Origin: a virus | Taxonomy: Duplodnaviria > Heunggongvirae > Uroviricota > Caudoviricetes | Length of the DNA stretch: 31,025 nucleotides | IMG/VR virus record: IMGVR_UViG_2802429232_000001 | Location: 1 to 31,025 of that record | Reading direction: 5' to 3' (one strand) | In this document: positions 3,801 through 31,025 of the stretch, piece after piece | Position numbering within the stretch: the first letter of the stretch is position 1 | Layout of the letters: each line of letters starts with the position of its first letter | Made by a program: the position numbers and the translations under genes | Notes under the pieces: generated by a model | The model's input: only the letters and a program-made list of their open reading frames with translations | Database searches by the model: none | Told to the model about the DNA's origin: nothing

Positions 3801-5045
3801 CGCAGAACCTTTATAGGTAAACAATCCATCTTTGACGTTAGAGTTGGTAAACATCATTACCGGATCTGATGGGCTATCCTGCATGATGTTAACCATCCCA
3901 CCAGCCCAAAACACCATGCCGCGGAATGCTCCAGCAATATCCTGAATTAGCCGGTATGCGTCCTGTCGACTGGTGATCTGCGTATTGATTGCAAAGCGTT
4001 TCTCTTTGCCACCAAAGCCATCATCGACCTCTTCGTCACAATATCGACCAATCTGGTACAACTGGCCAAGGTCAATCATAGATTCCGACACATACTGACC
4101 AAGGCCATATCGAGCATTGGTCAGCAAATCAAAGAGAATCCACGCGGGGTTCGAAGAAGACAACAGCTTAAAAGTGCCATCCCATACCCCAGCGTAAGTG
4201 TTACTGGACTCGTTATAGTTTGAAGGTACTCGAATTTTTAGGCCACGCACCAGATAAGAGCGAGATGGCATGGTGCTGCCGAATTGCTCAGAGTTTACCT
4301 TCAATCCAACCAAAACAGAGTTTGGATAGTTCATCGGTGTATCGACAATTTCCCCGATTGAATCCACCCATGTATCGTTATAGAGATACTGGCTACTGTT
4401 ATCATCGGTAATACGGACTACACGAACCTTGTATGCGCGTCCAGGCTTAGGCAGCTTCAGCTCGTAGCTACGGTAATAAACGCCGGTCTTCTTTGCTGTT
4501 AGCTTAATGCCAACGCTTTTTTCACCTTCCGCGACCACATCTACAAATGTTGAGTCGCCATTTGCTATCTGGAACTTGTACTCAACAGTCGTACCGTTCG
4601 TGTCACCAGTTTTTTTATCTATGCTTCGCAAAGAAGGAAACTTCATGATGACACGAACCCGATCAGCTTCATCGTTATCGATTGAAACCGTTACATAATG
4701 TGTTTTTTTTAACTGGATATTGACGGATTTAGGCGTTTCAACGAAATCAAAGCCAGACATTGGAGTCTGGTCTTGTGAACCGTCGCGAAAATCCCATGTG
4801 ATTCCGCTGAAGTTGGAGGAACCGTCCTCATTTACAATCGGCAGATCGTCGATAAAAATAGATCTTGCGCCATTTACTAAGCCGCCAATTACCCCTTCCC
4901 CAAGAAGATCGAGGATAGCGGCCATTGCACGAGAATTTACGGTATCGTCGGCTTCAACCGGTGTACGGCTGGAGCTTTTGCTGCTTTTTTTACCACCCGC
5001 ACCGGCAATAAACAGCGGTAGCTTTTTCTTCTTGAACTGTTCCAT
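885..5045 (-). CDS. J: Central tail fibre / host specificity protein (lambda J-like) with FN3 domain and coiled-coil repeat insertion
   Basis: ORF track 885..5051 (1388 aa); start moved to ATG at 5045 (MEQF), the listed start being TTG. Conserved J blocks recalled from lambda: NYPNSVLVGLKVNSEQFGS, VPSNYN, GVWDGTFK, FGCTSRGQAHRVGLWLL, and C-terminal YVAGIALGIDTTGLSQFLVQADRFGLVN. Follows I/K/L/M as in lambda. Confidence 0.85.
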   Translation of the reverse strand: MEQFKKKKLPLFIAGAGGKKSSKSSSRTPVEADDTVNSRAMAAILDLLGEGVIGGLVNGARSIFIDDLPIVNEDGSSNFSGITWDFRDGSQDQTPMSGFDFVETPKSVNIQLKKTHYVTVSIDNDEADRVRVIMKFPSLRSIDKKTGDTNGTTVEYKFQIANGDSTFVDVVAEGEKSVGIKLTAKKTGVYYRSYELKLPKPGRAYKVRVVRITDDNSSQYLYNDTWVDSIGEIVDTPMNYPNSVLVGLKVNSEQFGSTMPSRSYLVRGLKIRVPSNYNESSNTYAGVWDGTFKLLSSSNPAWILFDLLTNARYGLGQYVSESMIDLGQLYQIGRYCDEEVDDGFGGKEKRFAINTQITSRQDAYRLIQDIAGAFRGMVFWAGGMVNIMQDSPSDPVMMFTNSNVKDGLFTYKGSARKDRPSVALVTYNNKEDGYKQNIEYVEDQDAMRRYGERKTEVVAFGCTSRGQAHRVGLWLLYTARMESDVITFTAGLDASFLMPGETVLIQNKYRAGKRNSGRIVAFTKNSVTLDAPVSLAKGGCFIRILNQEGKIVERDVLETGENITKVTFSKALSSAETPVLNGVWTITEPDLEPMRVRIVNIAQGETPGSFDITAVENNPSKYEAIDNGATLIPQNTTVLDPTYSKPSNLQITEGTYLSSPGNLSVKLTATWEGKSPEYWISWRRSDENNVSNWQSARVTEEQYEIVNVAENGRYDFQLYAVSFNGKKTEIISTVYQVLGTMTPPDAPTSLTAVGDYRNVILNWVNPDSVDLDHINVYASQTNNLDTAKLIAESASTTFTHAGLGDSETWYYWVRASNKRGMLSPPNSNLGTEATTRDVLSFLTGKITSSELGQALLEEIDSKVSQEAVDSIYEQMDESLKSLDDKFTETDRRLEEAQNDLKTDVSSTVSKVEDALKEVANSNAALIQLQETVSEQGKAVAGAVEAANAALDNSSALIAEEREARVEGDLANAKEIEAMKSTVDSSLATIEEMKKTVAEVERSSAEVTTNIEALAKTNIDLALRQDEDQHKQMVSNAKITTTQKAFADDISAMATKMEEIRAEINEDIRASITEETTARVDADNAIASRITKLESKINDDISAAIVSEQEARASADEALSKEILSLQAKIEGDISAAISEEKIARATADESLAQQITTLKSQTGKDIKAAVAEETKARTDADSALASSITNLQAQTSKDINAAITSEATVRTNADNALSGRIDTLKASVDGNTATIQEQATAIADTNKKVSTAWTLKMETSTSGGQKYVAGIALGIDTTGLSQFLVQADRFGLVNSVNGKITTPFVIENSVAYMNGAYIKDGTITNAKVGDLQSTNFVSGRAGWRFGKNGTLEINSNSGGNGRLVINGQRIDVYDDNNVLRVRIGQL
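1359..1853 (-). repeat. Five tandem, diverged 99-bp (33-aa) coding repeats inside J, within a longer coiled-coil segment (~1359-2500)
   Basis: Protein-level periodicity: EDIRASITEETTARVDADNAIASRITKLESKIN / DDISAAIVSEQEARASADEALSKEILSLQAKIE / GDISAAISEEKIARATADESLAQQITTLKSQTG / KDIKAAVAEETKARTDADSALASSITNLQAQTS / KDINAAITSEATVRTNADNALSGRIDTLKASVD. Coordinates derived from residue counts. Confidence 0.7.
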
Positions 5046-19062: not shown

Positions 19063-20637
19063 TCACTCGTTCTCTTGAGTAGATGAGTCCCCATTCCCTC
19101 GGGGTTGATCTTGCCCGCTTTCTTGGGCTGCACCACGATCATAAGTAAGTACTGACTTATTTTCAAGGGTATTTAGATCATTTTTTGGAGGAAAATTCAA
19201 GAGATCTTTATCAAATTCCTTTTTCATCGCCTCAGTAATGTTCGGGAAAATCTTCTCAATAAGCATTTCCATCTGGTGACGACGTACAGAGTCCGGTGCC
19301 TGAAGTAATGACAGTTTCTCGGCAACAGAAAATTCATCAGTAAGGCCACGAATATCGAAACTTTCTGGATACGCAATTAAAGAGTGGTCTTCGTCCAGAT
19401 CTACCCCCATCCATTTCGCAACCAGTAGCATGATTTGGCGTTCAGCCCTTTCCAGACGCTCTGCTTTTGTGACAAGCAAGCTATTTACACGCTGGAAGTC
19501 ATACATTTTTGCGGCACCAGATGAATTATCGATTCCCTGTGCGTTGTCCTGCTTCGTTCGCTCACCAGCTACACCAACTGAATGGTAGATTTCGTTAATC
19601 ACCGTCTTAATCGTAGTGATGATCATCTGAGCTTGTTTCGGGTCTGGTGACAGATAAAACGGCTGGTTTCCACCTTCAGAATCGTAGGTGAAGACTCGCT
19701 TTGTGCCCATTTCAAGCACTTTAGTGTGGTTTTCATCACCAGGTAAAAGCGACTGTACCGGTATAGCCAACTGGCTAAATGTCTGATCCTGAATAATGGC
19801 ATCAAGGTTTGACAGATAGTTTGCAACCGCACGATCAAGATAAGCGATATCATCGATCAACGATGGGCTGAAATACGGTGATTCACTTTCTCCAATACAA
19901 TCAACAGGAAACACAGGAACTACGCCGAGATTATGCTCACCGCTATCCTCTAAAATAACTTTTGCCTGACGGCGACCTGCTCCACCAGCGCCCTTCTTCA
20001 CTTCCTCACGGAACAGATACCACTCGTTTTGTGTCCACAGACGATAACGTTGGTATTCCTGACCTGTAGAAGTAAAAGGATCTGCGTCATCACGAGCGAC
20101 TTCCACAATTAACGCCCACAACATATTCCCGTCGTCGTCCCATGCCACATCCAGCATTTGCTGAGGTGAAATCCAGTAGGCGTAGGCGCGAGCATCTTTC
20201 TTTTTCTCGTCAGCTACTGACTCAACATCACCACTCATCGTGCTATCGACAACAACCCATATGCGACCGTAAATAGACGACTGCAAATCAATAGCGGCCA
20301 TAAATGAGTCAATAGAGGCATTCTGGCGAGTCGCACGTTTCCAGAAATTGCGGATCTGCTCTGGTGCCTCTTCGATATTTCTATGAATGTCTTCTTTAAA
20401 GAGATATTTGTTGATGAGGTTTACCACCTCACGAGTGTGGTTGAAGCGATAAGCACGTTCAACTCGCTCCTTAAACTCCTGATCTCCCTCTTTAAAGTAA
20501 CGAAAGATATTGTCTGTAAACCAACCACGCCCGCCAGCGTAAGTGCTGGCGAGGAAGTCCCAATGTTCTTTTTTCTTTTCGTATTCCGGGTGGCGTCGCG
20601 CCACCAGATCCTTAATTTGTTTGTCGTTCAATTCCAT
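19063..20637 (-). CDS. Portal protein
   Basis: ORF track (524 aa); size and position immediately downstream of large terminase. Confidence 0.65.
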   Translation of the reverse strand: MELNDKQIKDLVARRHPEYEKKKEHWDFLASTYAGGRGWFTDNIFRYFKEGDQEFKERVERAYRFNHTREVVNLINKYLFKEDIHRNIEEAPEQIRNFWKRATRQNASIDSFMAAIDLQSSIYGRIWVVVDSTMSGDVESVADEKKKDARAYAYWISPQQMLDVAWDDDGNMLWALIVEVARDDADPFTSTGQEYQRYRLWTQNEWYLFREEVKKGAGGAGRRQAKVILEDSGEHNLGVVPVFPVDCIGESESPYFSPSLIDDIAYLDRAVANYLSNLDAIIQDQTFSQLAIPVQSLLPGDENHTKVLEMGTKRVFTYDSEGGNQPFYLSPDPKQAQMIITTIKTVINEIYHSVGVAGERTKQDNAQGIDNSSGAAKMYDFQRVNSLLVTKAERLERAERQIMLLVAKWMGVDLDEDHSLIAYPESFDIRGLTDEFSVAEKLSLLQAPDSVRRHQMEMLIEKIFPNITEAMKKEFDKDLLNFPPKNDLNTLENKSVLTYDRGAAQESGQDQPRGNGDSSTQENE

Positions 20638-20663: not shown

Positions 20664-21920
20664 CTACCGAGAACCACCAAGAATAACACGGTTTTTGACT
20701 GGATACCTACGATGTACTGGATAGCCCAATGCGTCTGCACTATGCTCAATGCCACCTGTCTTATCCATATCTCGTGTTCCAGGCTTGTAGATGACTTTTT
20801 CCAGTGAATCAATCAAATGCTTGCACTTCGGATCGATATACAGCCGGATATCTCCAGATGCGGACATCAGCATTCGGTTAACAGCATTAACACGATCCGC
20901 AATTGGCGGGTGCTTTTTCGAATAATCGACACGTAAGAATCCCTTCTCTTTGAATATGTCTACGTCAGACTCCCCACGAGCATGTTGGCGATAAGCACCT
21001 GCCGGATCTGGAAATACCGTTACCTGTGATTTCCAGCGCCAGAAGCGTCTCTCAAGCTCATCACAAACTTCTGCCGTGTTAGAGGAAAAGAGCACCAATT
21101 CATCAATTGCCCATAGCTCACCATTTGGCTGAGGTTGCAAAATTACTGAAGACATCGGGTCAATGTTGAAGTCCTGCCCTACCCATATAGGCAACCGAGG
21201 GTTGAACTGAAGCGGTTTTACATGCACGTTACGATCGAACGGGTAGTAAACGCGCCCGGACATGTTCTCAAAGCTGGCCAGGTACTCCTGAGCGAACGAT
21301 TTGGGGTCCATATCGTTCTTAGCAGCTTCAATTTCCGCCGTAGGCACAAACGGAGAATCGGCAGTTACAAACTGCCAGCTCTTCCACTGTCCCTTTCTTT
21401 GCAGCTCTACGTTCTGGCCTATAGTCCACAGTTTGTGAAATTCCGAGAAGCCTTTTGGCGTACCAATGATCAGTGCACCGCCGCGTGTCGATGAAAGAGT
21501 AGGTCGTAACACCTTGTACCAGGTGTCAGCCTTCATATCCTGAAATTCATCAAGCACTACAAAATGCAACGCTACGCCGCGCAGAGTGTCAGGCTTATCA
21601 GCACCTTTGAGGGCGATCTCCGAACCGTTCTTCAACACGATTGTCATCGTGGTGTCGTTCTTTTTCCTAACCCACTTACGAGGCAGAACTTCCTGTAGAT
21701 CGTCCCACAAAATCTGGCGAGCCATCTGGTAAGTAGGAGCGACATACCAGACCCTTTGCTTTTTTTCCTTTGCCGCCGCACGAATAATAGTGGAGATCGA
21801 CAACCGGGATTTTCCCCAGCGTCGACCAGCACAAACAACTTTAAATCGATGCGGAGACTGGAAGACTTTCATCTGTCCAGAATGCAGTTGCACAAGACTG
21901 AGCGAGGACGGGATTGCCAT
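20664..21920 (-). CDS. Terminase large subunit
   Basis: ORF track (418 aa). Walker A-like VVCAGRRWGKSRLS, Walker B-like HFVVLDEFQD, acidic nuclease-domain motifs (VGQDFNIDPMS, FPDPAG). Start overlaps small-subunit stop by 1 nt (TAATG). Confidence 0.8.
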   Translation of the reverse strand: MAIPSSLSLVQLHSGQMKVFQSPHRFKVVCAGRRWGKSRLSISTIIRAAAKEKKQRVWYVAPTYQMARQILWDDLQEVLPRKWVRKKNDTTMTIVLKNGSEIALKGADKPDTLRGVALHFVVLDEFQDMKADTWYKVLRPTLSSTRGGALIIGTPKGFSEFHKLWTIGQNVELQRKGQWKSWQFVTADSPFVPTAEIEAAKNDMDPKSFAQEYLASFENMSGRVYYPFDRNVHVKPLQFNPRLPIWVGQDFNIDPMSSVILQPQPNGELWAIDELVLFSSNTAEVCDELERRFWRWKSQVTVFPDPAGAYRQHARGESDVDIFKEKGFLRVDYSKKHPPIADRVNAVNRMLMSASGDIRLYIDPKCKHLIDSLEKVIYKPGTRDMDKTGGIEHSADALGYPVHRRYPVKNRVILGGSR

Positions 21921-22552
21921 TATTCGTCCTCCCCTTCACTTCCATCATCTGTCGCATCAAATTCGCTTAGAGCTTCTTCTTCCAACGTCTCAAGCAATTC
22001 GTCATCGATGATTTCAGGCTCGTCGTCTTCCTGACGTAATTTCGCCACCTGGGAAGGCGTAAGCTCACCAAATACCAGGTTCGGAATTTCTTCCTCGTCA
22101 TTTTCCGCATGATCCATGCCCAATGCTTTGGACGAAACTTCAAAGCATTTTGCAAGGGTATTACTGGCTCTCTGTAAGCTCTTGAGAGAATCCTCAATCG
22201 CCCCTAAAGGCTTACCCTCACGTTTGGCCGTAGTGACTTCGACCATCACCATCTGCCCCAACGCATACGCCCAGCCGTCATAACGTGTACGACGTTCTTC
22301 TATCTTTTCCGCACGGGCTTTAGCGCGAAGCTCTGCGTCAGATTTAAGAGACTCACGAACCATCTTCCCAACAGAGTCCGCGCCTTTCTCTAATCCTCGC
22401 TTTTTGAAATGTCTGGAGAGTGTTTCACGACGAATGCCGTACTCTTCCTCCAGCTTTGAGAGTGTATATTCGCCTGACGTCCATTTGGCTTCAGCTTCGG
22501 CCCACTCCGCTGGTGTCAGGCGAGTTTTTACCTCGTCTTTTTCGACCGTCAT
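21920..22552 (-). CDS. Terminase small subunit (putative)
   Basis: ORF track (210 aa). N-terminal HTH-like region, very acidic C-terminus, AGAGGGA RBS, translationally coupled to the large subunit. Confidence 0.55.
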   Translation of the reverse strand: MTVEKDEVKTRLTPAEWAEAEAKWTSGEYTLSKLEEEYGIRRETLSRHFKKRGLEKGADSVGKMVRESLKSDAELRAKARAEKIEERRTRYDGWAYALGQMVMVEVTTAKREGKPLGAIEDSLKSLQRASNTLAKCFEVSSKALGMDHAENDEEEIPNLVFGELTPSQVAKLRQEDDEPEIIDDELLETLEEEALSEFDATDDGSEGEDE

Positions 22553-22747
22553 AGATCCCTCTAAAACACACAGAGCGCGTCCATGCGCTCTAAAACAACT
22601 TGTTTACTGCATCTGCTAACCAACTTGTTTTCTGGGGTGTTTAATTAGGTCTGGCATGTCTTACGAAGCCTGCTTCCGTATATATTTAATAAGTTACTTA
22701 TTATTTATATATACAGAAGCAGGTCTTTAAATAAGCTCCCAGACCGA
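22553..22747. promoter_or_regulatory. Highly structured 195-bp non-coding region upstream of small terminase: direct repeats, hairpin and a ~60-bp AT-rich imperfect palindrome (candidate cos/pac and/or late promoter)
   Basis: CTCTAAAACA twice (~22559 and ~22588); CAACTTGTTT twice (~22596 and ~22621); hairpin AGAGCGC-gtccat-GCGCTCT (~22572-22591); palindrome CCTGCTTC..TATATAT..AATAAGT-t-ACTTATT..TATATATA..GAAGCAGG (~22665-22727). Confidence 0.5.
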
Positions 22748-23014
22748 TTACATCACCAGTAACTTCGCTTTGGCTCGACCTAAAGTGGTTAACCCAAGAG
22801 TTCGGCGGTGATAGCGATTGTCACTGCGTTGGCGCGTATGCCCTTTCTCCACCAGCCCCTTTTTTATCAGAGCGCGAATTGAGAACTGGATACTTTGCTT
22901 GGTTGTCTTGTACGGCAAAACTTCAAGCAATTCGTCCAGGTCAAGTAGATGACCTCGCTCATAACCGAGATTGAGCGTTTTGATGATGTCCTTTTGTTTA
23001 TCGGTTAACGTCAT
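22748..23014 (-). CDS. Small winged-helix DNA-binding protein (putative)
   Basis: ORF track (88 aa); basic, helix-rich (SIQFSIRALIKKGLVEKG followed by a basic tail); last gene of the ParB/ATPase module. Confidence 0.4.
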   Translation of the reverse strand: MTLTDKQKDIIKTLNLGYERGHLLDLDELLEVLPYKTTKQSIQFSIRALIKKGLVEKGHTRQRSDNRYHRRTLGLTTLGRAKAKLLVM

Positions 23015-23023
23015 GGCAAATCC

Positions 23024-23923
23024 TTATGCCGGTAAAGCAATTTCTAACGGTTTATCCAAAGGTTGTTTGTCGAATGCCAGCAGTGGCAGCGTGTCAGGCA
23101 GTCGACGACCAAAGTCAGGGTTTCGATACACACCATACAACGGAGACGTAAAGCTCAGGTTGTGAATGTCCTTGAGCAGCTTCACAATGCTGGCCTCGTC
23201 CACCAGACTGTCGGCAATGTCCTGAATCGTCGTGCCACGATTCCGCCCAGCTTTTGCCAGGGAACTGTTCTTGTGGTAGTCCGCCACCAGATCACGCAGT
23301 GCACGGCGACGACGAGACTCGCTCATAGCGAACAACTCTTTGACGATCGCCTCGTTATCACCCGGGTCGGAGCGGAAATGGCGCTGGAACACACGCAGTG
23401 CACTTTCATAGCTCTTCGGTCGCTCAGGGCGGATGAACTTAAACCCTGCTTTCATGGCGAAGGGATTGTATTTGCTCATCGATGACTGGATCTCAATGAT
23501 TGGCCGGTCATGCATCCTGCTAACCAGGTTAATCATTCGATAAGAGACGCCTACGCCACGGTACTGAGTATCCACAACTGAGCGGCTGATCACCGCAAAG
23601 TTGTTATTCACGTACCGGCCCCAGTACTGGTTAGCCACGGTGGTATTGGTGGTTGGTTTCAACTTAGGAAACATGCGATGGCGAGGTGCCAGCAGAAGTT
23701 TCGGGTAAGCCATAACCACGACGCCCACCAGACGATCATCCAGTTCGCAGCGATAGTATGTTGGCGCGAAAGGTTTGCCGTCTGTTTTGTAGTGAAGCGA
23801 CTTAAGAGCGTGCCAGTCCTCTACAGTTCCCTTTGTGACAGTCATTCGCTCCAGAAAGTCCAGATGACGCGGAAACTCTTCAGGGCGGTAGCGTTTGATG
23901 ATGATATCTGCCATGTCGATCAC
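23024..23923 (-). CDS. Hypothetical protein with GNAT acyltransferase-like motif and Arg-rich C-terminal extension
   Basis: ORF track (299 aa). AVISRSVVDTQYRGVGVSYRMINLV matches GNAT motif A (R-x-x-G-x-G/A). Start overlaps upstream stop (ATGA). Confidence 0.4.
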   Translation of the reverse strand: MIDMADIIIKRYRPEEFPRHLDFLERMTVTKGTVEDWHALKSLHYKTDGKPFAPTYYRCELDDRLVGVVVMAYPKLLLAPRHRMFPKLKPTTNTTVANQYWGRYVNNNFAVISRSVVDTQYRGVGVSYRMINLVSRMHDRPIIEIQSSMSKYNPFAMKAGFKFIRPERPKSYESALRVFQRHFRSDPGDNEAIVKELFAMSESRRRRALRDLVADYHKNSSLAKAGRNRGTTIQDIADSLVDEASIVKLLKDIHNLSFTSPLYGVYRNPDFGRRLPDTLPLLAFDKQPLDKPLEIALPA

Positions 23924-24174
23924 CTGCGCTCGATATTGGCATTGATGAAATCCAGGCGAAGAGACTCCATCGCCCCTACCATGACATACGGGCGCCCGCC
24001 GTTATGCCAGCAATCAAGAACACTGCCGTCGTTGTTGATCATCAACAGCGCCAGGCTCTGGCTTTTTCCTTCTCTGGCGTGCTGAAGTGCTTCTTCCAGC
24101 AGGCGGATGACTTCCACGTTGTTGTTATCAGTCTCTTTCGATGGCTTCAGCTCTACGATCTTCAAATCAGGCAT
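23920..24174 (-). CDS. Hypothetical small protein (84 aa)
   Basis: ORF track; overlaps upstream gene end by 8 nt; part of the tightly coupled module. Confidence 0.4.
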   Translation of the reverse strand: MPDLKIVELKPSKETDNNNVEVIRLLEEALQHAREGKSQSLALLMINNDGSVLDCWHNGGRPYVMVGAMESLRLDFINANIERR

Positions 24175-24805
24175 ATTCCACCTTCACGCGTTCTTTGTAG
24201 TGCTTGGTGATCTGCATATCCGGGCGCAGCGCGTTCTTCAGGTCTTCGTGAGTCGTCGCCACCATTACCGTCGCACCAACCTTTCGAGCGGCACGCTGGA
24301 GGTTAGACGCCACAACCTGAGCGGTTACACGGTCTAGAACAGCGCCGAACTCGTCAGCAGCCCATACTTTAGCGCCTGACTCAATCAGTTTGGCAATCTT
24401 GAGACGATATTTCTGGCCGTCTGACATTTCAGAAGGCTTGCGAACAAACAGATATGCATCGTTCAGACCAGCCATAGATAACAACCCAAGCGCATCACTG
24501 GTCGTTTTGCCCAACTGATCGATGACGTTAACCTCATTATCGAAGGTAAAATCATCGATGGAGGCCACAGATAGCCCTTCATCCTTCATCTGGTGTTGCA
24601 GCTCGCGCAGCACAACGGATTTGCCGGAACCGGATTGGCCGGTAATGTACACCACATCGCCCTGCTTCACTTCCAGCTCCAGATTGTCGTAAAGCGTCCA
24701 CTCTTTTTCGTCCAGGCCAAGCCCGAACGACTCAGCGATTTCCAACGTGCGCGTGGTTTTATTTACGCGTGTCTGAAACGATACGTTGATGATGTATTTG
24801 CTCAT
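24167..24805 (-). CDS. Minimal ABC-type ATPase (nucleotide-binding domain only)
   Basis: ORF track (212 aa). Walker A GQSGSGKS, ABC signature-like MSDGQKYRL, Walker B KVWAADEFG, H-loop VATTHE. No membrane partner nearby. Start overlaps upstream stop (ATGA). Confidence 0.7.
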   Translation of the reverse strand: MSKYIINVSFQTRVNKTTRTLEIAESFGLGLDEKEWTLYDNLELEVKQGDVVYITGQSGSGKSVVLRELQHQMKDEGLSVASIDDFTFDNEVNVIDQLGKTTSDALGLLSMAGLNDAYLFVRKPSEMSDGQKYRLKIAKLIESGAKVWAADEFGAVLDRVTAQVVASNLQRAARKVGATVMVATTHEDLKNALRPDMQITKHYKERVKVEYA

Positions 24806-25470
24806 GCAGCCATCTCCCCGGAAGAGATCTTCTCCGCATATGCCACAAATGCGTCTACCCCGCTTTCTCCCGTCATTTCTTCCATGTGGGCAAGCAAATC
24901 ACCAACAACAATGGCAGAGCCAGCAGGGAGCGTTTTAAAGCCCAATACGTCGACAACACGTACTTCTTCCGCTGCAACTTCACGACTGATCTCGGTGTGT
25001 TCATCCTTCTGTCGTTTAGTTTCTTCGCCAAGATCGATAACTAGCGAGTCGGTGTCCATTTCTTCTGTCATACTGCCAACGAGAACATTCAACTCACGCT
25101 CTTCAAAGCCGAAAACCTCGATATCGTCCAGAACAAGCGACTCAAGCTCTTTCTGTAGCTTAATTGCATCGTAATCAATGCTGGCAAGTCGGTTATCTTC
25201 AAGGCGCTTCGCACGAACCTCGTCATCACTGAGATCATCGCGAACAATAACCGGTACGCGCTCAAGTCCAGCAAAAATTGCAGCCTCACGGCGGCCGTGG
25301 CCAGTAATAATTACGTCGTTCTTATCGACCGTAATTGGCTGGTCAAATCCGCGCTTTTTAATGGCTGCGGCTAGATCTCGGATCTGCTGTTCATCATGCT
25401 TTTTGGCATTCATCTCATAGGGAATAAGATCTGCCGGGTCGCGATATACGATTTCAAACTTTTTGGTCAT
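24802..25470 (-). CDS. ParB/Srx-fold N-terminal domain protein (second copy)
   Basis: ORF track 24802..25503; start moved to Met12 (MTKKFEIVY) at 25470, AAGGAG upstream, overlapping the upstream stop (TAATG). ParB-box-like ITGHGRREAA; acidic C-terminal half. Confidence 0.6.
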   Translation of the reverse strand: MTKKFEIVYRDPADLIPYEMNAKKHDEQQIRDLAAAIKKRGFDQPITVDKNDVIITGHGRREAAIFAGLERVPVIVRDDLSDDEVRAKRLEDNRLASIDYDAIKLQKELESLVLDDIEVFGFEERELNVLVGSMTEEMDTDSLVIDLGEETKRQKDEHTEISREVAAEEVRVVDVLGFKTLPAGSAIVVGDLLAHMEEMTGESGVDAFVAYAEKISSGEMAA

Positions 25471-26150
25471 TACATACGCTCCTTGTAGTAGTCGACCAGC
25501 CACACCAGAGCCTCACCAGCGTTCTCCATTTCATTACCGGTGTTAATAGCCTGCTCTTTGATGATGTTTTTTATGGTTTCTGCAACACGATCTGACGCAT
25601 CGAAAGTTACTTTGAAGCGCATGGTCTGATGTTCCGCACCCACACGTTCGGTTTTCTCTCGTTTGTCGGTATCGACAGGCTCATCACTACCACGAGACAA
25701 AGCCTCCAGTGCTTCAAGGTCGATTGCCGCCTCTTTTGCTAAAACCATCGAGATTTCGTCGTCATACGGGGCGATTTCAGACAGTTGATAGTCAAGTTCT
25801 GACTGAATTTCTTCAATGAAGCGTTGCAATGCGATTTGGTCGTCTTCACCGTATCGCTCGTTGTCCACCAGTGACATCTGTTTAGCTACGACATCGCTAA
25901 TTTTGCCCACAGAAAGCACCGGAACCGTTGAAATTCCTTGCTCAATAGCAGCACGCCAGCGATGTTCGCCGCCGAGGATTTCAAAAAATCCATCTTCAAG
26001 TTCACGAGCCAAAATTGGCTTAAAAAAGCCCAATTTTTCGATAGAACCTTTCAGTTTTTCAAAATTCTGCGCACCAACCGAATTGGTGTTCCAGGTATTC
26101 GGGCGAAGGTTGGCAACATCAACCTGCAAAATCGTGATTTTTACATCCAT
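25470..26150 (-). CDS. ParB/Srx-fold N-terminal domain protein (first copy)
   Basis: ORF track 25470..26168; Met1 (26168) or Met7 (26150) are both possible. ParB motif FEILGGEHRWRAA; acidic C-terminal half. Confidence 0.6.
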   Translation of the reverse strand: MDVKITILQVDVANLRPNTWNTNSVGAQNFEKLKGSIEKLGFFKPILARELEDGFFEILGGEHRWRAAIEQGISTVPVLSVGKISDVVAKQMSLVDNERYGEDDQIALQRFIEEIQSELDYQLSEIAPYDDEISMVLAKEAAIDLEALEALSRGSDEPVDTDKREKTERVGAEHQTMRFKVTFDASDRVAETIKNIIKEQAINTGNEMENAGEALVWLVDYYKERM

Positions 26151-26168
26151 TTTATTGCTACAATCCAT

Positions 26169-26232
26169 TAAGTAATCACTTACTTATTATAATAGCCAAA
26201 TAACATACAAAAGGCACTAAGGAAAGAGGTTT
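26169..26232. promoter_or_regulatory. Divergent intergenic region with inverted repeat TAAGTAA-tcac-TTACTTA and TATAAT-like element
   Basis: Only 64 bp separate the divergent gene starts. Inverted repeat at ~26169-26186; TATAAT at ~26188-26193, readable on both strands; no convincing -35. Strong SD AAGGAAAGAGG precedes the helicase ATG. Confidence 0.4.
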
Positions 26233-27792
26233 ATGACTGTTCGGATTGTATCTAACGCAGTAAATGCACTTATTTCTGGCGCAGATGACAAGGTAAAGCA
26301 ACTGGTGCAACAGATGTTGAGCTACGAAGTCGAGACTGGCGACTGGAAGGGCACAAGCACGATGTTCAACTGGAGTAAAAACTCGTTCCCTGCTGGCTTT
26401 GCCAAGCCTGTAGCGGCGAACTTGAACAAGGCGGGCATCAAATGTGTTCATATCCGCAAAGACAAAGCTCCGGCGCTTGGAAAGCCAAATCCGGCGGTCA
26501 ACCCATTCCCATACAATCCTGATTATGCATATCAGGATCAGACTGTGGAAACACTGGTTCGAGAGGGAATGATGATTGCGCAGATCGCTACTGGTGGCGG
26601 GAAATCTAATGTTGCCTGCAAAGCAGCTGCACGTATCGGTCGAATGACATTATTTTTAACAACCCGCTCTGTTCTGATGTTTCAGATGGCCGAAAACTTC
26701 CAGAGATCCATCGACTACCGCGCCGAAAATGGCGAACCGTGGTTAAAAGACCAAAAGGTTGGAGTCATTGGCTCGGGTGAGTTCCAGGTATCACGACATA
26801 TCAACGTCGCTACAGTTCAAACTCTGGCAAGTTTCCTTGAAGAACCACCACGCGATGCAACTCCAGATAAGAAGAGCTACCACCTCAAACGTCGGGACTT
26901 GGTGAAACGCTTCCTTTCAAGTGTCTCTCTTCTTATTCTGGAAGAGGCGCATGAGTCTTCAGGCTCTAATTTCTATGACATTGCCAGATTATGTGCGAAC
27001 GCAGACTATCGCCTGGCGCTTACGGCAACGCCGTTCATGAAGGATTCTACGGAAGCCAACATGCGTCTGATGGCAGTGGCCGGGCGAATTGAAATAAAAG
27101 TCACGGAAAAGTACCTGATTGATAGAGGCATTCTGGCAAAGCCATACTTCCTTTATCATAAAGTTGCCTACAAGCCGGACGAGGCCAGAATCAAGGCAGA
27201 ACTTGCCAACAAACACCTCAATTTTAGAGTAGGTATGAGCACTGCCTACCAAAAGGCTTATCAGTTGGGGATCGTGTATAATTTGGGACGTAATGAGGCC
27301 ATTGTTCGCGAAGCATTGCTCTATAAGCAACATTCTCTCAATTGTATGACTCTGGTTCGTCTTAAACGCCACGGGCAAATCCTGATGGAAATGATGAAAG
27401 AGTCCGGCCTTAGAGTTGACTTCATTTATGGGGAATCGAACCAGTCGACAAGGCAAGCAAAGCTGAACAGTTTAGCGTCTGGCGACATAGATGTTTTAAT
27501 AGGCTCGACTATTCTGGATGTCGGTGTTGATGTGCCAAGCGTTGGTGCGGTCATTCTTGCTGGTGGTGGGAAAGCAGAAGTTGAAATGAGACAACGTGTC
27601 GGTCGTGGCTTACGAGCCAAGAAGAATCAGGCAAACGTGTGTTTTATCACTGATTTCATTGACATTAGCAACAAATACCTGTTGTCTCACTCTTATGAGC
27701 GAAAACACATCATCGACACCACACCTGGCTTTGCAGAAGGTGTATTGCCTGTTGATGGCGCATTCGATTTTGGAGTTCTGAAACGAGATTAG
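26233..27792 (+). CDS. Superfamily 2 helicase (DEAD/DEAH-like, ResIII-type core)
   Basis: ORF track (519 aa). Motif I IATGGGKSN, motif II LILEEAHE, motif III LTATPF, motif VI QRVGRGLR. Confidence 0.8.
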   Translation: MTVRIVSNAVNALISGADDKVKQLVQQMLSYEVETGDWKGTSTMFNWSKNSFPAGFAKPVAANLNKAGIKCVHIRKDKAPALGKPNPAVNPFPYNPDYAYQDQTVETLVREGMMIAQIATGGGKSNVACKAAARIGRMTLFLTTRSVLMFQMAENFQRSIDYRAENGEPWLKDQKVGVIGSGEFQVSRHINVATVQTLASFLEEPPRDATPDKKSYHLKRRDLVKRFLSSVSLLILEEAHESSGSNFYDIARLCANADYRLALTATPFMKDSTEANMRLMAVAGRIEIKVTEKYLIDRGILAKPYFLYHKVAYKPDEARIKAELANKHLNFRVGMSTAYQKAYQLGIVYNLGRNEAIVREALLYKQHSLNCMTLVRLKRHGQILMEMMKESGLRVDFIYGESNQSTRQAKLNSLASGDIDVLIGSTILDVGVDVPSVGAVILAGGGKAEVEMRQRVGRGLRAKKNQANVCFITDFIDISNKYLLSHSYERKHIIDTTPGFAEGVLPVDGAFDFGVLKRD

Positions 27793-27794
27793 TT

Positions 27795-28073
27795 ATGAGC
27801 GAAAAGAAAACAACTTATTGCCAAGTGGCATTGTCTGATAAGGCCAATGAAAAACTTGGAAAATTTCAAATAAAACTCAAAGAGAAAAAAATCAAGATGT
27901 CTAAGGCTGAAGTTATCAATGCCATTCTGGAGACGATGACTATGGCTGAATTTGACAAAGTCACATCTGCCGTTGGGGTTTCCGCTAAGACGCGTGAGAA
28001 AATCATGCGCATCTATGAGAACTCCAATATGACAAAAAAAGATCTAGAGGAAATACTGAGCAGGTTGCCGTAA
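27795..28073 (+). CDS. Hypothetical small protein (92 aa), Lys/Glu-rich
   Basis: ORF track; start 2 nt after helicase stop, so co-transcribed. Confidence 0.5.
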   Translation: MSEKKTTYCQVALSDKANEKLGKFQIKLKEKKIKMSKAEVINAILETMTMAEFDKVTSAVGVSAKTREKIMRIYENSNMTKKDLEEILSRLP

Positions 28074-28105
28074 CATTTCATATTTACCCCCTATCAACTA
28101 ATTCT

Positions 28106-28141
28106 ATGATGTGCTCACTTGTTAGAAAGGAGCACATCATG
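28106..28141 (+). promoter_or_regulatory. Perfect 11-bp inverted repeat ATGATGTGCTC-N13-GAGCACATCAT covering the SD and start codon of the next gene
   Basis: Read directly; the right arm ends in the ATG at ~28139 and the loop contains AAGGAG. Could form an mRNA hairpin occluding translation initiation, or be a dimeric-protein operator. Confidence 0.5.
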
Positions 28142-28705
28142 AGTTGGTTAAAAGAATTATCATTTGTTGACACCACTGGCGCTAAGAAAAATCATTCTTT
28201 CTGGAAAGTCAGCGATCCTTCTGATTTTCTTGTTGGTGCTAATGCTGCGTTTGAATTGCTTAACTTTTATCAACGTTATCCTGAAATGAAACACAGTCCA
28301 CTCCTGTACAGAATAACAAACGATATGAATAGGTCTGGTTTATTATCAAGTGAGTCAGCGAAAGGCTTTTTTAGCAAAATTACGCCACACATATCATTCG
28401 ATGCAGCAAACGAAATTGATTATCTATCCACGAAACCTCAAGAACAATTATCTGTACCACCTGAGAAAAAAGAAAGACGAATTGCCAGCATTGAAAATAT
28501 ATCGAAAGAGCTTCGCACAACAACGTTGAGGCTGCTGAACTTTCTTACGCTACTTAATTGGATAGATGATCAAACATTGATTCCATCAACCGATGCGTTG
28601 GATAACAGAGTCCTTCGTCTAAACAAAAAATCGCAATTTGGTTTTGTGTTCACCAAAAAAGGTGAAGATTTAATCAAAAGAAAATATAGATTATTGAATG
28701 ATTAA
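28139..28705 (+). CDS. Hypothetical protein (189 aa), AT-rich gene
   Basis: ORF track 28106..28705; start moved to ATG at 28139 (MSWLKEL), which has AAGGAG 7 nt upstream. Visibly lower G+C than the structural genes (by eye, not computed). Confidence 0.5.
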   Translation: MSWLKELSFVDTTGAKKNHSFWKVSDPSDFLVGANAAFELLNFYQRYPEMKHSPLLYRITNDMNRSGLLSSESAKGFFSKITPHISFDAANEIDYLSTKPQEQLSVPPEKKERRIASIENISKELRTTTLRLLNFLTLLNWIDDQTLIPSTDALDNRVLRLNKKSQFGFVFTKKGEDLIKRKYRLLND

Positions 28706-28710
28706 TAGTC

Positions 28711-28740
28711 TACATGCAGGTGTATGAGAGCACCTGCATG
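28711..28740 (+). terminator. 11-bp perfect hairpin ACATGCAGGTG-N8-CACCTGCATGT after the 189-aa gene (terminator-like or operator)
   Basis: Read directly; the T-run (TTTTTT) sits ~13 nt downstream rather than adjacent, so not a textbook intrinsic terminator. Confidence 0.4.
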
Positions 28741-28850
28741 TGACATTCATCACATTTTTTGAAGTACACACCTCCGGCTGAAAAAATTTCTTGATTGGCT
28801 GAACGATATTTGTAGGCTTTTCAATTGATAACTAAGGTCGGATACTGTAG

Positions 28851-29339
28851 ATGAGTATTTCTATAAACAAAATAATTAACTCTTTACGACATAAAATATC
28901 ACATGGAAAAGATGTTCTTTTTAAAGACAAATATTATCTATTCAACTTAGTGCCGTACAAATGTACAAAATTTTATATCACTCGGGACTGTAAATATTCA
29001 GTTTCAATCACAAAAGACATGAAGAAAATCTCTTCAGAAGAGTACTTCATATCACATATTTATATCTACCCATTTAAATTAGAACCATTAAATATAATTC
29101 TTCCAACAATAAAAGGGGTTGAACTTGAAGGTTATACTTTAAGCTCTAACTTTAATGATATGGGTGTACAAAAACCAGGGTCAAGGTCATACTACGCCTA
29201 CAAAGTAAAATGCAATAACTACAACGCACTTAACATGCTAATCAGCAAACTTGAAACGGAGATAGTCAAAGGAAATCTAAATGATGATCATGAAAAATTA
29301 GAACAAATAGAAAAACTTAGAAAGTGTGATGTTAAATAA
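28851..29339 (+). CDS. Hypothetical protein (162 aa), strongly AT-rich gene
   Basis: ORF track. Lys/Asn/Ile/Tyr-rich; composition by eye roughly 30-35% G+C, clearly below the rest of the window. Confidence 0.5.
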   Translation: MSISINKIINSLRHKISHGKDVLFKDKYYLFNLVPYKCTKFYITRDCKYSVSITKDMKKISSEEYFISHIYIYPFKLEPLNIILPTIKGVELEGYTLSSNFNDMGVQKPGSRSYYAYKVKCNNYNALNMLISKLETEIVKGNLNDDHEKLEQIEKLRKCDVK

Positions 29340-29354
29340 TTGGATTATCATGAT

Positions 29355-29954
29355 ATGAAAATGAAACTTTCGTTACTCCTTGCTTGTATATGCCTCCCGG
29401 CGTTTTCCGCCAACGCATTATCAGATTTCGTCTCTGACATGCAAAAAACGTACAGCATGTATACTTCTGAAGACGTACTAAAATACAAATCACGAGGTCT
29501 GATTCAACCAGTCTGGTATAGATTCTCAGATAACGCAGAAGAAACAATACTTCATGCAGGAAAAGAAAGATTACGGTTGCAAATTAACGGGACCGCAGTA
29601 CCAGAAAACGCTAATGTAAGCTCTAACGAGGCCATGAAGCCATCTGGAATTGTTTTAGAAATTCAAGACGGTACACTCTATTGTGATGAAATGGCTACAA
29701 CGGGTTGCCAAGTGAACATCAGAGTTGGCAATGAAGAACCTATTGTCACTTATGCTAAGACTGAAGGGAATACCAGTGGGAAGGTATTGTTTATTGATGA
29801 AAACACAACAAAACGTATCGTTCGCGACATCAAGAAAACAACGAACTCTAAATCCGTCGATAAAAAAATCTATGTTGAAGTCCCCTTCTTGGTCGTTGGT
29901 AACAAAGAATTTAAATTTGGATTGCTGAAAACACCTCTAAGAGTATCAGAATGA
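29355..29954 (+). CDS. Secreted protein or lipoprotein (signal peptide MKMKLSLLLACICLPAFSANA)
   Basis: ORF track 29340..29954 begins at a TTG; first ATG at 29355 gives a classic signal peptide with a possible lipobox (LLAC) or signal peptidase I site (AFSA-NA). Confidence 0.5.
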   Translation: MKMKLSLLLACICLPAFSANALSDFVSDMQKTYSMYTSEDVLKYKSRGLIQPVWYRFSDNAEETILHAGKERLRLQINGTAVPENANVSSNEAMKPSGIVLEIQDGTLYCDEMATTGCQVNIRVGNEEPIVTYAKTEGNTSGKVLFIDENTTKRIVRDIKKTTNSKSVDKKIYVEVPFLVVGNKEFKFGLLKTPLRVSE

Positions 29955-30472
29955 GAACATTGGACATCACCTACGGCATACCGGCTGAAGTATGGCCGCG
30001 AAACTACGAACATGCTGAACGCACCTTGCTCTTCTGGCGGAGTGCTCAATTTCCTGTAAGAGTCACTCTCGAAGACGGCCAAGTGTTTTGCATGTATGTC
30101 TACGGGCTGTTGAGCGCAAGAAATAAGCTGAACCTCACACCAGATCCGTTTAGCAACACAAATCGTGTAAGGCTCCCTCTTGAGCGCATTAGCACAATTG
30201 AGTCAGGCATAGAAGAGGTTGACACTTCATTCACAGGTCGACTAACACTGAACAATGAACAGATGGTTAATCAGCCATCACGCCGTGACTTTTTTGCGAT
30301 ATGTCGCAAGGCTTATCAAAACGACCAATCTATAAGGGTCTACATGGCAGACGGTCGTGAAATAGAAGGGGTATCAAGAGGCGTTGATGCTTGCCAGGTC
30401 ACTCTTAAGTTAGAAGACGGCAGAAAAATACTTGTTTTCTTCGATTGGGTTGAACGAATTTTACCTTTTTGA
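29951..30472 (+). CDS. Protein with two Rof/YaeO-like repeats (putative Rho-interacting Sm-like fold)
   Basis: ORF track (173 aa); start overlaps upstream stop (ATGA). Both halves carry hydrophobic-x-hydrophobic-x-(E/K)DG cores (RVTLEDGQVF, RVYMADGREIEG, QVTLKLEDGRKILVF) and a tail RVRLPLERISTIES that resemble E. coli Rof (LTLELKDGEKLQAKA, RELRLDKITSFS) as I recall it. Confidence 0.45.
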   Translation: MRTLDITYGIPAEVWPRNYEHAERTLLFWRSAQFPVRVTLEDGQVFCMYVYGLLSARNKLNLTPDPFSNTNRVRLPLERISTIESGIEEVDTSFTGRLTLNNEQMVNQPSRRDFFAICRKAYQNDQSIRVYMADGREIEGVSRGVDACQVTLKLEDGRKILVFFDWVERILPF

Positions 30473-30475
30473 GTT

Positions 30476-30772
30476 ATGAAATCGATACTATTGACATCTT
30501 TATTTTTAGTTTACTCAATTTCGGCCAATGCAAAGGATGATATCGCAATTATTCAGTCGCTGATGAATGACGTATGCTCAACGTCTCAGAATGTACCAGT
30601 TTGCATGTTTAAACTTTCAGCAGCTGTAAAACTAGGGATAAACATTGGTAAGACCGCTCAACTATGTGAACAAGTGGAAAATTATGAACCATGTGAATCG
30701 AACAACTCTTCTGTGCAGTTCGTTGATGCGTTATTTGACACCAATCGTAAGGCTGTAGAGTCAGTCCGATAA
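30476..30772 (+). CDS. Small secreted Cys-containing protein (signal peptide MKSILLTSLFLVYSISANA)
   Basis: ORF track (98 aa); cleavable signal peptide; mature part has four Cys. Confidence 0.5.
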   Translation: MKSILLTSLFLVYSISANAKDDIAIIQSLMNDVCSTSQNVPVCMFKLSAAVKLGINIGKTAQLCEQVENYEPCESNNSSVQFVDALFDTNRKAVESVR

Positions 30773-30784
30773 ATGTATAAGGGT

Positions 30785-30813
30785 AATAACCGGCTAAGTC
30801 CGGTTATTTTTTT
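30785..30813 (+). terminator. Intrinsic terminator closing the plus-strand accessory operon
   Basis: AATAACCGG-ctaagt-CCGGTTATT followed directly by TTTTTTT, 13 nt after the last stop codon. Confidence 0.75.
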
Positions 30814-31025
30814 AAATGCCATTTATTAAATACACCTCCAATTCTACCCCGTATAAATATATAAGGTTATAAGCCGCAATTAATTATTTATTTAGGGAAC
30901 ACCTTCGACGATCTCGATTTTATTTCTAGGACTTCCGTCCCTGCAAAAAATTTAAAAAAAAACATGCAATCTTTTTTTGCGTATCGATAATTTAACGAAT
31001 AAGAAACGAGAGTAAAAATTTTCTT

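Follow-up and report, generated by a model that had tools for sequence, protein, structure and literature searches.

Proteins with the ParB N-terminal fold bind CTP, ATP or GTP, with a nucleotide specificity that is not predictable from sequence, and those of phages are often fused to methyltransferases (PMC12704722). In a system of post-replicative base modification, a thymine dioxygenase, 5mYOX, depends on a phage ParB-like protein in which a nucleotide-binding domain is joined to a C-terminal one and no DNA-binding domain is obvious (PMC13229309, PNAS 2026). We have analysed a 31,025-nucleotide stretch of DNA from a virus of the Caudoviricetes (IMG/VR record IMGVR_UViG_2802429232_000001, positions 1 to 31,025; hereafter the window), whose minus strand encodes, at 22748-26168, a module of two ParB-like proteins (g1 and g2), a minimal ABC-type ATPase (g3), a small protein (g4), a GNAT-fold protein (g5) and a probable winged helix-turn-helix (wHTH) protein (g6). 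The ParB of the 5mYOX system is encoded beside the base-modifying enzyme and often near the terminase, an arrangement that resembles that of g1 and g2. In contrast, the 5mYOX enzyme is an Fe/2-oxoglutarate dioxygenase, whereas the module has a GNAT fold, with an activity on DNA that is only predicted, two ParB paralogues and an additional ABC ATPase.

Other systems share some of these parts. The Dnd system, which modifies DNA by phosphorothioation, likewise joins a ParB-like protein to an ABC ATPase and a small protein that binds DNA (PMC10853773). Its parts list (the ParB-like DndB, the ABC ATPase DndD, the small DNA-binding protein DndE and the enzymes DndA and DndC) parallels that of the module. 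However, Dnd is cellular and the module viral, and the latter has no homologues of DndA, DndC and DndE. In searches with PADLOC 2.0, the only Dnd-type match was a marginal one between g3 and the P-loop of DndF. Neither g4 nor g5 had a match in that collection, g1 and g2 matched only the ParB part of MTase_II and g3 matched only generic P-loop families. Membership in Dnd or another PADLOC defence system was rejected, since no signature protein was significantly matched. Similarly, no profile search in Pfam, PHROG, NCBIfam or PADLOC placed the proteins in a characterised replication, partition or packaging module. The ParB-DNA methyltransferase fusions of phages (phrog_498; MTase_II, PDLC03229), which are typically prophage genes (PMC12704722), harbour a ParB region like that of g2 and, less strongly, g1. 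Nevertheless, g1 and g2 have no methyltransferase domain, and the putative enzyme of the module is separately encoded and has another fold.

Two GNAT-type enzymes also bear comparison with g5. Mom of phage Mu (PDB 8bv8) is a GNAT-fold DNA adenine-modifying enzyme that works alone, whereas proteins of the g5 type are obligatorily paired or fused with an ABC domain, and often with ParB. In addition, a helical insert of ~90 residues distinguishes g5 from Mom, and there is no sequence-family relationship between the two. In TmcA/NAT10, an NTPase engine is coupled to a GNAT domain for the ATP-dependent N4-acetylation of cytidine in RNA. The engine of TmcA is a helicase-type ATPase accompanied by an RNA-binding domain, unlike the ABC protein of the module, and no sequence relationship with TmcA/NAT10 was detected in any of the searches run.

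The window belongs to an SSU5-like phage-plasmid. Its region 22500-26400 is 99.5% identical to Escherichia phage CMS-2020a, 98% to the PhiR41_1 and Cyrano phages, 86% to Salmonella phage SSU5, where the module genes are SSU5_125 to SSU5_130, and ~81% to Klebsiella SSU5-like phage-plasmids. The public labels from g1 to g6 are 'ParB-like partition protein' (twice), 'ABC transporter', 'hypothetical', 'ABC transporter ATP-binding subunit' and 'hypothetical'. The g5 protein of Cyrano is called 'MK0520 protein, ABC-type ATPase fused to a predicted ...', and g5 homologues carry the JGI name 'ABC-type ATPase with predicted acetyltransferase domain'. A full-text literature search yielded no description of a ParB-ABC-GNAT unit, although older comparative-genomics papers may mention it; the existing record consists of generic annotations and of the JGI name for the fused protein only. 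One paper, on nicks in the DNA of Pseudomonas phages, was considered and set aside, as the phage group concerned is unrelated. The component folds are all known and ParB-assisted DNA modification has precedents, but the unit as such is uncharacterised.

Gene fusions and conserved gene order

A HMMER search with a profile of the g5 family against 1.84 billion cluster representatives retrieved 870 of them at E ≤0.001, and architectures were counted among the best 150 of these 870. Single-chain ABC-GNAT proteins make up 67 of the 150, and four more (P0199, P0223, P0227 and P0232) are ParB-ABC-GNAT chains. The others are stand-alone GNAT-like proteins, of 200-340 aa (38 representatives) or longer (one, of 362 aa), and fragments (40). 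A profile built from split g3-type proteins alone recognises the ABC half of the fused chains with E values of 1e-52 to 1e-80, which indicates that g3 and g5 correspond to two halves of one protein and are not chance neighbours. The g5-type GNAT profile in turn matches the second half of the 67 fused representatives (1e-23 to 1e-34). The ABC-GNAT family is defined by an ABC nucleotide-binding domain and, directly after it, a g5-type GNAT, whether in one chain or in adjacent genes, and the window carries its split version.

Further ParB-ABC-GNAT fusions were found at locus L128 and at the archaeal loci L174, L192, L198 and L237. At the level of domain assignments, these fusions show ParB to be a third, optionally fused part of the ABC-GNAT protein. 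In P0210 and P0175, a family B DNA polymerase (PolB) is fused in one chain to ABC-GNAT. The P0210 gene (L090/L091 8001-11783), present in at least 24 contigs, belongs to a replication module that also encodes PrimPol, RecA, a 5'-3' exonuclease and an SMC-like ATPase. Another fused ABC-GNAT member is found inside an SPbeta-type replication module. Judged from the predicted architectures, the ABC-GNAT, ParB-ABC-GNAT and PolB-ABC-GNAT fusions are far stronger support for one DNA-directed machine than synteny is, and ParB, ABC and GNAT probably form such a machine.

Other members of the family have unusual architectures. P0161 (847 aa) is an ABC-GNAT protein with an intein and a LAGLIDADG homing endonuclease inside its ABC domain; inteins usually sit in highly conserved proteins of DNA metabolism. 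P0154 (665 aa), presumably archaeal, has a C-terminal TFIIB cyclin-type repeat, a hint that certain lineages connect the protein with transcription. Two E. coli proteins retrieved with g5, P0027 (301 aa; a ParB N-domain joined to the C-terminal two thirds of g5) and P0030 (257 aa; ABC joined to part of g5), are near-identical hybrids (98-99%). They are probably deletion derivatives of the module carried by certain E. coli elements, and suggest that it is decaying in some plasmid copies.

To define the core of the unit, we used a diversity set made up of contigs of distant g5 homologues (42-50% identity), cultured phages and IMG/VR loci, the cultured relatives being phages of Pseudomonas (nickie), Rhizobium, Stenotrophomonas and Xanthomonas. 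A profile scan of viral contigs with the g5 alignment gave near-identical SSU5-type loci only, and a scan with the fused family added diversity. Gene order was determined by comparing profiles made from relatives with stop-to-stop open reading frames (ORFs) in six frames, independently of the crude metagenomic ORF calls. All 27 divergent loci that are long enough have the same order, with a helicase gene on the opposite strand followed by ParB1, ParB2, ABC, GNAT-like and wHTH genes, a gap, and then terS, terL and the portal gene. The wHTH gene directly follows the GNAT gene in 26 of the 27, often with overlapping stop and start codons; in the remaining one, L087, it was missed by the wHTH profile, and an 80-aa ORF, EVB78_034, is annotated at that position. 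As an observation on the records themselves, the helicase, ParB, ABC, GNAT-like, terminase and capsid genes of Xanthomonas phage JGB6 (L088; OQ436456) are each split into short coding sequences, which looks like frameshift sequencing errors in the record, not biology.

The original prediction had taken the six genes for one uncharacterised functional unit and named co-occurrence beyond this genome as a check. Both the invariant order and the gene fusions bear out such a unit, albeit with a smaller membership, since g4 proved to be a variable insert. From these comparisons, the functional unit is predicted to consist of five genes, for ParB1, ParB2, ABC, GNAT-like and wHTH proteins. Our preferred reading, which we hold to be a real possibility somewhat short of probable, is that these five genes code for a ParB-gated, ATP-driven acyltransferase machine that would modify the phage's own DNA after replication and before packaging, by analogy with Mom, Dnd and the ParB-dependent thymine dioxygenases.

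The g4 gene (23920-24174, minus strand; 84 aa; function not assigned) belongs to phrog_796 (5e-47) and has no Pfam, NCBIfam, PADLOC or PDB match. PhiR41_1 is devoid of it, its ABC gene abutting the GNAT gene. In the relatives, the ParB2-ABC and ABC-GNAT spacings vary, up to 1.4 kb, and unrelated small genes (Phage_gp49_66, RyR, DUF2829 and others) fill these junctions. The absence of g4 from PhiR41_1 and the presence of unrelated genes at the same junctions make it one of several interchangeable inserts. Insertions of this kind, in L084, L087, L129, L137, L138 and L143, leave the core order undisturbed. Locus L085 also has a gene of a Tad2-like family (anti-Thoeris sponges) at 4163-4456, by a weak Pfam match, a few kb upstream of the helicase gene, which shows that counter-defence genes occupy the variable region beside the module.

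The last gene, g6 (22748-23014, minus strand; 88 aa), belongs to phrog_900 (2e-45). Its product had been called a wHTH protein, and it does match wHTH profiles, if weakly (CARF-wHTH in PADLOC, 4.5e-5; Sta1/Lrs14 in NCBIfam, ~3e-3); no PDB sequence matched it. We retain it as a probable winged-helix DNA-binding protein.

The ORF list confirms six co-directional, tightly packed ORFs on the minus strand, as initially described, and all six products have PHROG families (E values from 1e-45 to 1e-165). Given these strong families, and since five of the genes keep their order in relatives with 42-50% identity, the ORFs are real genes and not chance. The overlapping stop and start codons described between them are present at some junctions only. 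The g1/g2 (TAATG, 1 nt), g2/g3 (ATGA, 4 nt) and g3/g4 (ATGCCTGA, 8 nt) pairs overlap, whereas g5/g6 are separated by a 9-nt spacer, and g4/g5 by a 5-nt spacer with an ATG start or overlap (GTGA) if a GTG start is used. In total, three or four of the five junctions overlap and the others have spacers of at most 9 nt.

Upstream of g1, a 64-bp AT-rich region (26169-26232) separates the module from the divergently oriented gene of a DEAD/ResIII (UvsW-like) helicase (26233-27792, plus strand; Pfam ResIII, DEAD and Helicase_C; phrog_16). A TATAAT hexamer is readable on both strands of this region, in keeping with the divergent promoters originally proposed, but a consensus promoter scan called no full promoter in it; it is thus a putative bidirectional promoter region. 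The head-to-head placement is found in all 27 divergent relatives, in which the helicase is an invariant neighbour of the module. Together with the fusions and the position of the terminase genes, this placement ties the unit to contexts of DNA polymerase, helicase and terminase.

ParB-like, ABC and GNAT-fold components

The first gene, g1 (25470-26168, minus strand), encodes a 232-aa protein, or one of 226-227 aa with the alternative start M7; g2 (24802-25470, minus strand) encodes a protein of 222 aa, its true start being the ATG at 25470 and not the GTG at 25503. Both proteins exceed the Pfam gathering score of ParB_N (26.3 bits), with 49.9 bits (3.3e-13) for g1 and 35.0 bits (1.5e-8) for g2, and their PHROG families are phrog_723 (2e-79) and phrog_930 (1e-112), respectively. 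Having the PF02195 domain and the GxxRxxA arginine motif, they are both proteins of the ParB/Srx N-terminal (ParB-CTPase) fold, and the GGEHRWRAA and ITGHGRREAA motifs had been rightly recognised in the original prediction. The g1 protein matches the N-terminal domains of Spo0J/ParB/Noc proteins with E ~1e-9, its GGEHRWRAA sequence being aligned to GERRxRAA and its VDNER to VENLQR, and the g2 motif aligns with GERRYRAA of Spo0J. The g2 protein is a full-length paralogue of g1, with 28% identity. It matches phrog_498, a 'DNA methyltransferase' family, over N-terminal positions 29-179 (5e-32) and MTase_II of PADLOC (2.9e-17), so that by sequence its N-domain appears closest to the ParB domains fused to phage DNA methyltransferases.

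In g1, the nucleotide-binding ParB/Srx fold at the N-terminus is apparently joined by an acidic linker to a small domain at the C-terminus. An AlphaFold2 model, based on the 120 homologue matches listed, all of which are at least 84% identical, is confident for residues 10-102 alone (predicted local distance difference test (pLDDT) scores of 70-88 for the N-domain), and not for residues 103-232. Neither g1 nor g2 matches HTH_ParB in Pfam, there is no confident helix-turn-helix (HTH) in g1, and in NCBIfam the TIGR00180 score is 43 bits for a cut-off of 58.

Partition of the plasmid or phage genome is the current reading of these proteins in databases and in the literature, where paired ParB genes are called partition genes 'involved in DNA segregation' (PMC7969092). 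Its proponents could point to the ParB_N domains, to the resemblance of g1 to chromosomal ParB and Noc and to the phage-plasmid nature of the element. ParABS systems indeed share the ParB N-terminal nucleotide-binding fold and the GxxRxxA motif with g1 and g2. However, a ParA partner, a confident HTH and a parS array were not found for the module. No ParA/MinD-type ATPase is encoded in the module or in the neighbouring genes scanned, and g3 matches CbiA/ParA with an E value of 0.0033 only, under the cut-off. In addition, the module occurs in phages that were recovered as free viruses (nickie and the Rhizobium and Stenotrophomonas phages), in archaeal proviruses and in an integrated prophage (L083, in a 3.27-Mb contig, beside flagellar genes), and in some members ParB is fused to ABC-GNAT. 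The module also travels with conserved phage genes, whereas parA and replication genes vary (PMC7969092). Classical partition was therefore rejected, on account of the lack of a cognate ParA in the module and the neighbouring genes scanned and of an HTH_ParB match, the free-virus and integrated occurrences and the fusion of ParB to an enzyme, and we consider partition extremely improbable. Of the roles that had been suggested for the module (base modification, anti-restriction, or an accessory of packaging or partition), partition has thus become unlikely, whereas DNA modification, as in our preferred reading, and packaging are both compatible with the evidence.

The g3 gene (24167-24805, minus strand) encodes a 212-aa protein that matches ABC_tran in Pfam (5.9e-13; 50 bits for a cut-off of 25). 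It has the features of an ABC ATPase nucleotide-binding domain, Q-loop included, and its GQSGSGKS (Walker A), SDGQ (signature), DEF (Walker B), LD (D-loop) and H (H-switch) motifs are conserved in 63 relatives. The PDB relatives of g3 are nucleotide-binding domains of transporters, but g3 has no membrane partner or coiled coil. A membrane permease or fused transmembrane domain is absent from the module and its neighbours in all 27 relatives, in agreement with the complete ABC domain without transporter partner described at the outset. As there is no permease and the partner of the ABC domain is a GNAT domain, the unit is not a transporter, and the ABC transporter reading of g3 and g5 was rejected.

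The g5 gene (23024-23914, minus strand; GTG 23923 as an alternative start) encodes a 296-aa protein from an ATG that agrees with SSU5_129 and with the 296-aa P0001. Despite its 'ABC transporter ATP-binding subunit' label, the protein has no P-loop. No family in Pfam, NCBIfam or PADLOC comprises it, and a PDB sequence search with its profile returned nothing meaningful. Among curated GNAT profiles, Acetyltransf_10 gave E 0.038 and 14.4 bits, for a cut-off of 23.6, while distant fused relatives exceed the Pfam cut-off of Acetyltransf_1 (20.7) with 27.8, 26.6 and 25.6 bits. The AlphaFold model of g5 is confident (pLDDT 86.6) and has a mixed alpha/beta GNAT fold with a beta4-alpha3-beta5 core. The YRGVGVS sequence, proposed to be GNAT motif A, is the beta4-alpha3 coenzyme A (CoA)-pyrophosphate loop in this model, with the pyrophosphate-binding motif (Q/R-x-x-G-x-G/A) as R119-G-V-G122-V-S. 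R119 and G122 are invariant in 34 split homologues, as are their counterparts R310 and G313 in 38 fused homologues.

According to DSSP, strand beta6 of g5 (159-161) is followed by ~90 helical residues and then by strands 259-264 and 275-277, on which lies an invariant YG-x-x-x-NP motif. The model is thus consistent with one GNAT domain, with a ~90-residue helical insert between beta6 and beta7, rather than two domains. Invariant residues of the split and fused families are an N-terminal His-Tyr pair, the R-x-x-G of the CoA loop, the beta5 Glu, a Met and a Tyr in the last strand. In GNAT enzymes, the catalytic residues are typically a Glu on beta5 and a Tyr close to the C-terminal strands, and the Glu on beta5 and the Tyr on beta7 are the candidate catalytic residues of g5. 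The conserved CoA loop, Glu and Tyr, together with the ABC motifs, support the predicted catalytic competence of g5 and g3.

Similarity to Mom had been part of the original prediction. The GNAT fold is indeed shared, but the similarity is generic. Structural alignments of g5 with Mom give ~11-12% identity, Mom is one among dozens of equally similar GNATs and the fold matches of g5 in BFVD all have E values of ~1e-4 to 1e-5. Membership of g5 in the Mom family was therefore rejected, given the generic likeness of the folds and the absence of a PHROG or Pfam link.

Position next to the packaging genes

Downstream of the module lie, all on the minus strand, the genes of a terS-like DNA-binding protein (21920-22552; phrog_867, 2e-100), the large terminase TerL (20664-21920) and the portal protein (19063-20637), in agreement with the annotation of SSU5; Terminase_6N and SPP1_portal are recorded for the homologues in L083-L085. 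At least five packaging modules that are unrelated to each other, from bacterial and archaeal viruses alike, have the unit next to TerL. In the SSU5 lineage, terminase adjacency was found in 27 of 27 loci. Elsewhere, a ParB-ABC-GNAT fusion is followed by a 168-aa gene, TerL and an HK97-type portal (L128), ParB and ABC-GNAT genes precede TerL and a lambda-type portal (L158), and a GpA-type TerL is followed by an 82-aa gene, ParB and ABC-GNAT (L154). In a large group of metagenomic viruses, a Terminase_6N TerL is encoded directly upstream of the fused gene, in the same orientation.

A scan of species-representative genomes with a narrow alignment of the fused family identified this group as proviruses of Bathyarchaeia, Nitrososphaeria and Methanocella. 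By raw count, 42 of 77 of these archaeal loci have TerL at position -1, and conserved structural genes are found upstream of the fused gene and variable genes downstream. Many metagenomic viral contigs of the archaeal lineage (such as L094, L096, L101, L107, L112, L113, L118, L120, L124 and L126) end a few hundred bases after ABC-GNAT; the fused gene appears to close the conserved block of virus genes, or to stand where the provirus or genome ends. The link with the packaging region recurs across terminase and portal families and in both prokaryotic domains, a minority of members being in replication modules. A place beside the terminase is typical of genes for late-acting DNA modification; terminases occur in 19% of the 5mYOX neighbourhoods (PMC13229309).

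The module is separated from terS by a gap of 195 bp (22553-22747), and no other non-coding stretch of the gene block is sizeable. In this gap are a 55-nt palindrome (22669-22723) with GC-rich outer arms and an AT-rich centre, which folds with -17.3 kcal/mol (z = -7.2), two direct repeats CAGwAAACAAGTTGkTT (22593-22634) and, just before terS, a terminator-like hairpin with a T-run (22571-22592). Both ends of the deposited linear SSU5 genome lie inside the palindrome, and of seven distant relatives tested, three (L083, L085 and L087) have large palindromes in the corresponding gap. The repeat has six matches in the whole window for 2.6 expected, the real ones being the two copies in the gap. 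The gap may be an operon boundary or terminator, a pac/cos site or a loading site for the DNA-binding parts of the module.

This position raises the possibility that ParB-ABC-GNAT is a packaging accessory that works with the terminase, for example by marking, opening or holding pac/cos, resolving concatemers or delivering DNA to TerS/TerL, while the GNAT would acylate a packaging protein or act structurally. The analogy here is with HNH endonucleases, which PMC3592412 describes as encoded beside cos/terminase genes. On that description, they are, like the module, the final genes ahead of the cis packaging site and of terS, terL and the portal gene, but their fold and chemistry are entirely unlike those of the module. 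Such an accessory would account for the recurrent adjacency to TerL in unrelated packaging modules, for the fused gene directly after TerL and in the same orientation in archaeal viruses and for the palindrome and repeats exactly between the module and terS, with the ends of the SSU5 record inside the palindrome; moreover, ParB-fold domains can nick DNA (PMC5512222). It fits less well with the fused ABC-GNAT proteins of terminase-free replication modules and those fused to PolB, and the conserved CoA loop and catalytic-type residues favour chemistry over scaffolding. Most tailed phages package without such proteins, and a separate TerS-like protein is already encoded. Altogether, we regard a packaging accessory as unlikely, though as a serious candidate.

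The features of the gap might also be those of a regulatory switch, the ParBs loading near the boundary between the module and terS and acting as KorB-like, NTP-dependent sliding clamps that switch the late operon, with ABC-GNAT and the wHTH protein as co-regulators. The module heads a ~25-kb minus-strand gene block and is set off from terS by repeats and a terminator-like hairpin, one archaeal member carries a fused TFIIB repeat and KorB is a precedent, cited as such in PMC13229309, for a ParB-type clamp in transcription control. Nevertheless, the enzyme-like GNAT site and the ABC and PolB fusions would be left unexplained by a clamp, many fused members have no ParB partner and the parS-like repeats amount to the two gap copies only. 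There is thus but a slim chance that the module is a regulatory clamp.

At the other end of the window, a 173-aa protein encoded at 29951-30472 (plus strand) matches Flag1_repress in Pfam (repressor of phase-1 flagellin, FljA-like; E 1.9e-68). Its gene lies within a plus-strand block at ~28000-31000 with a GC content of 0.35-0.40, compared with ~0.47 elsewhere. This block looks like an acquired accessory island, which could alter host flagellar expression.

A possible DNA-acylation machine

In our preferred reading, DNA acylation between replication and packaging, g1 and g2 would form an NTP-gated dimer, possibly a heterodimer, that holds the ABC-GNAT enzyme on phage DNA, like the ParB partner of the thymine dioxygenases. 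The g6 protein would provide sequence or site recognition, possibly at the downstream repeats and palindrome. ATP-driven closure of the ABC dimer, relayed via the helical insert of the GNAT, would bring the target base into the acyl-CoA site. Once acylated, the DNA would be taken up by the adjacent terminase for packaging, and at the next infection it would be shielded from host nucleases.

Several points weigh against this scheme. No report of modified SSU5-like virion DNA was found in the literature searched. The likeness of g5 to Mom is no better than that to dozens of GNATs that acetylate proteins or small molecules, and the DNA-binding surface that g5 would need is only putative. Similarly, g3 belongs to the transporter class of ABC proteins and not to the DNA-clamping SMC/Rad50/RecF class. 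With a g1 model that is confident for the N-domain only, both the lack of a DNA-binding domain and the heterodimer are putative. As to genomic context, adjacency to the terminase may be no more than a consequence of where replication and structural modules meet. A terminator-like hairpin is present between the module and terS, and some fused members are in replication modules far from a terminase. Finally, mutations of the ParB NTP-binding residues were without effect in the 5mYOX system (PMC13229309), so that the ParB gating step is uncertain even in the precedent.

The GNAT might also acylate a host or phage protein, such as a nucleoid protein, a nuclease or a defence effector, or else a small molecule resembling a nucleotide signal. 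Such a reaction would serve host takeover or counter-defence, with ParB and ABC as nucleotide sensors or regulators rather than devices for loading on DNA. The GNATs of phage conflict systems are generally predicted to act on proteins (PMC5512222). A sensor role would be in line with the binding of ATP, CTP or GTP by ParB folds and with a bacterial ParB-acetyltransferase fusion that binds GTP (PMC12704722), and the variable small genes in and around the module, including the Tad2-like gene of L085, resemble accessory genes. However, the module is strictly conserved across hosts as different as Enterobacteria, Pseudomonas, Rhizobium, the Xanthomonas group and Ectothiorhodospira, and in archaeal viruses. 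Its constant order and presence across hosts point to a core life-cycle function rather than to a host-specific counter-defence, the intein insertion and the PolB fusion point to DNA metabolism, and g5 has no PADLOC match. Acylation of a protein or small molecule therefore seems to us rather improbable, and DNA acylation remains the reading that we prefer.

In its broadest form, this reading implies a previously unrecognised ATP-driven DNA-acylation system, present in tailed viruses of bacteria and archaea, and a second lineage of DNA-modifying GNATs after Mom; we put this forward tentatively, as more doubtful than not. If the substrate is DNA, the unit would represent a new route to DNA acylation, and SSU5-type phage-plasmids, common in clinical Enterobacteriaceae, would carry an undetected covalent modification of their DNA. 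These elements occur widely in E. coli, Klebsiella, Salmonella and Yersinia and bring resistance genes with them, and a function in DNA modification or packaging would have a bearing on their host range and transfer.

The annotation of these genes is also concerned. They are named 'ABC transporter', 'ABC transporter ATP-binding subunit' and 'partition protein ParB' across databases, whereas the evidence points to parts of one enzyme machine. That machine appears to belong to the conserved phage core, while the phage-plasmid literature instead counts both ParB copies as segregation genes. Roles of the ParB-CTPase fold beyond chromosome segregation have been shown only recently, and a ParB-ABC-GNAT machine found from enterobacterial phages to proviruses of Bathyarchaeia would be a new, experimentally tractable case of this kind.

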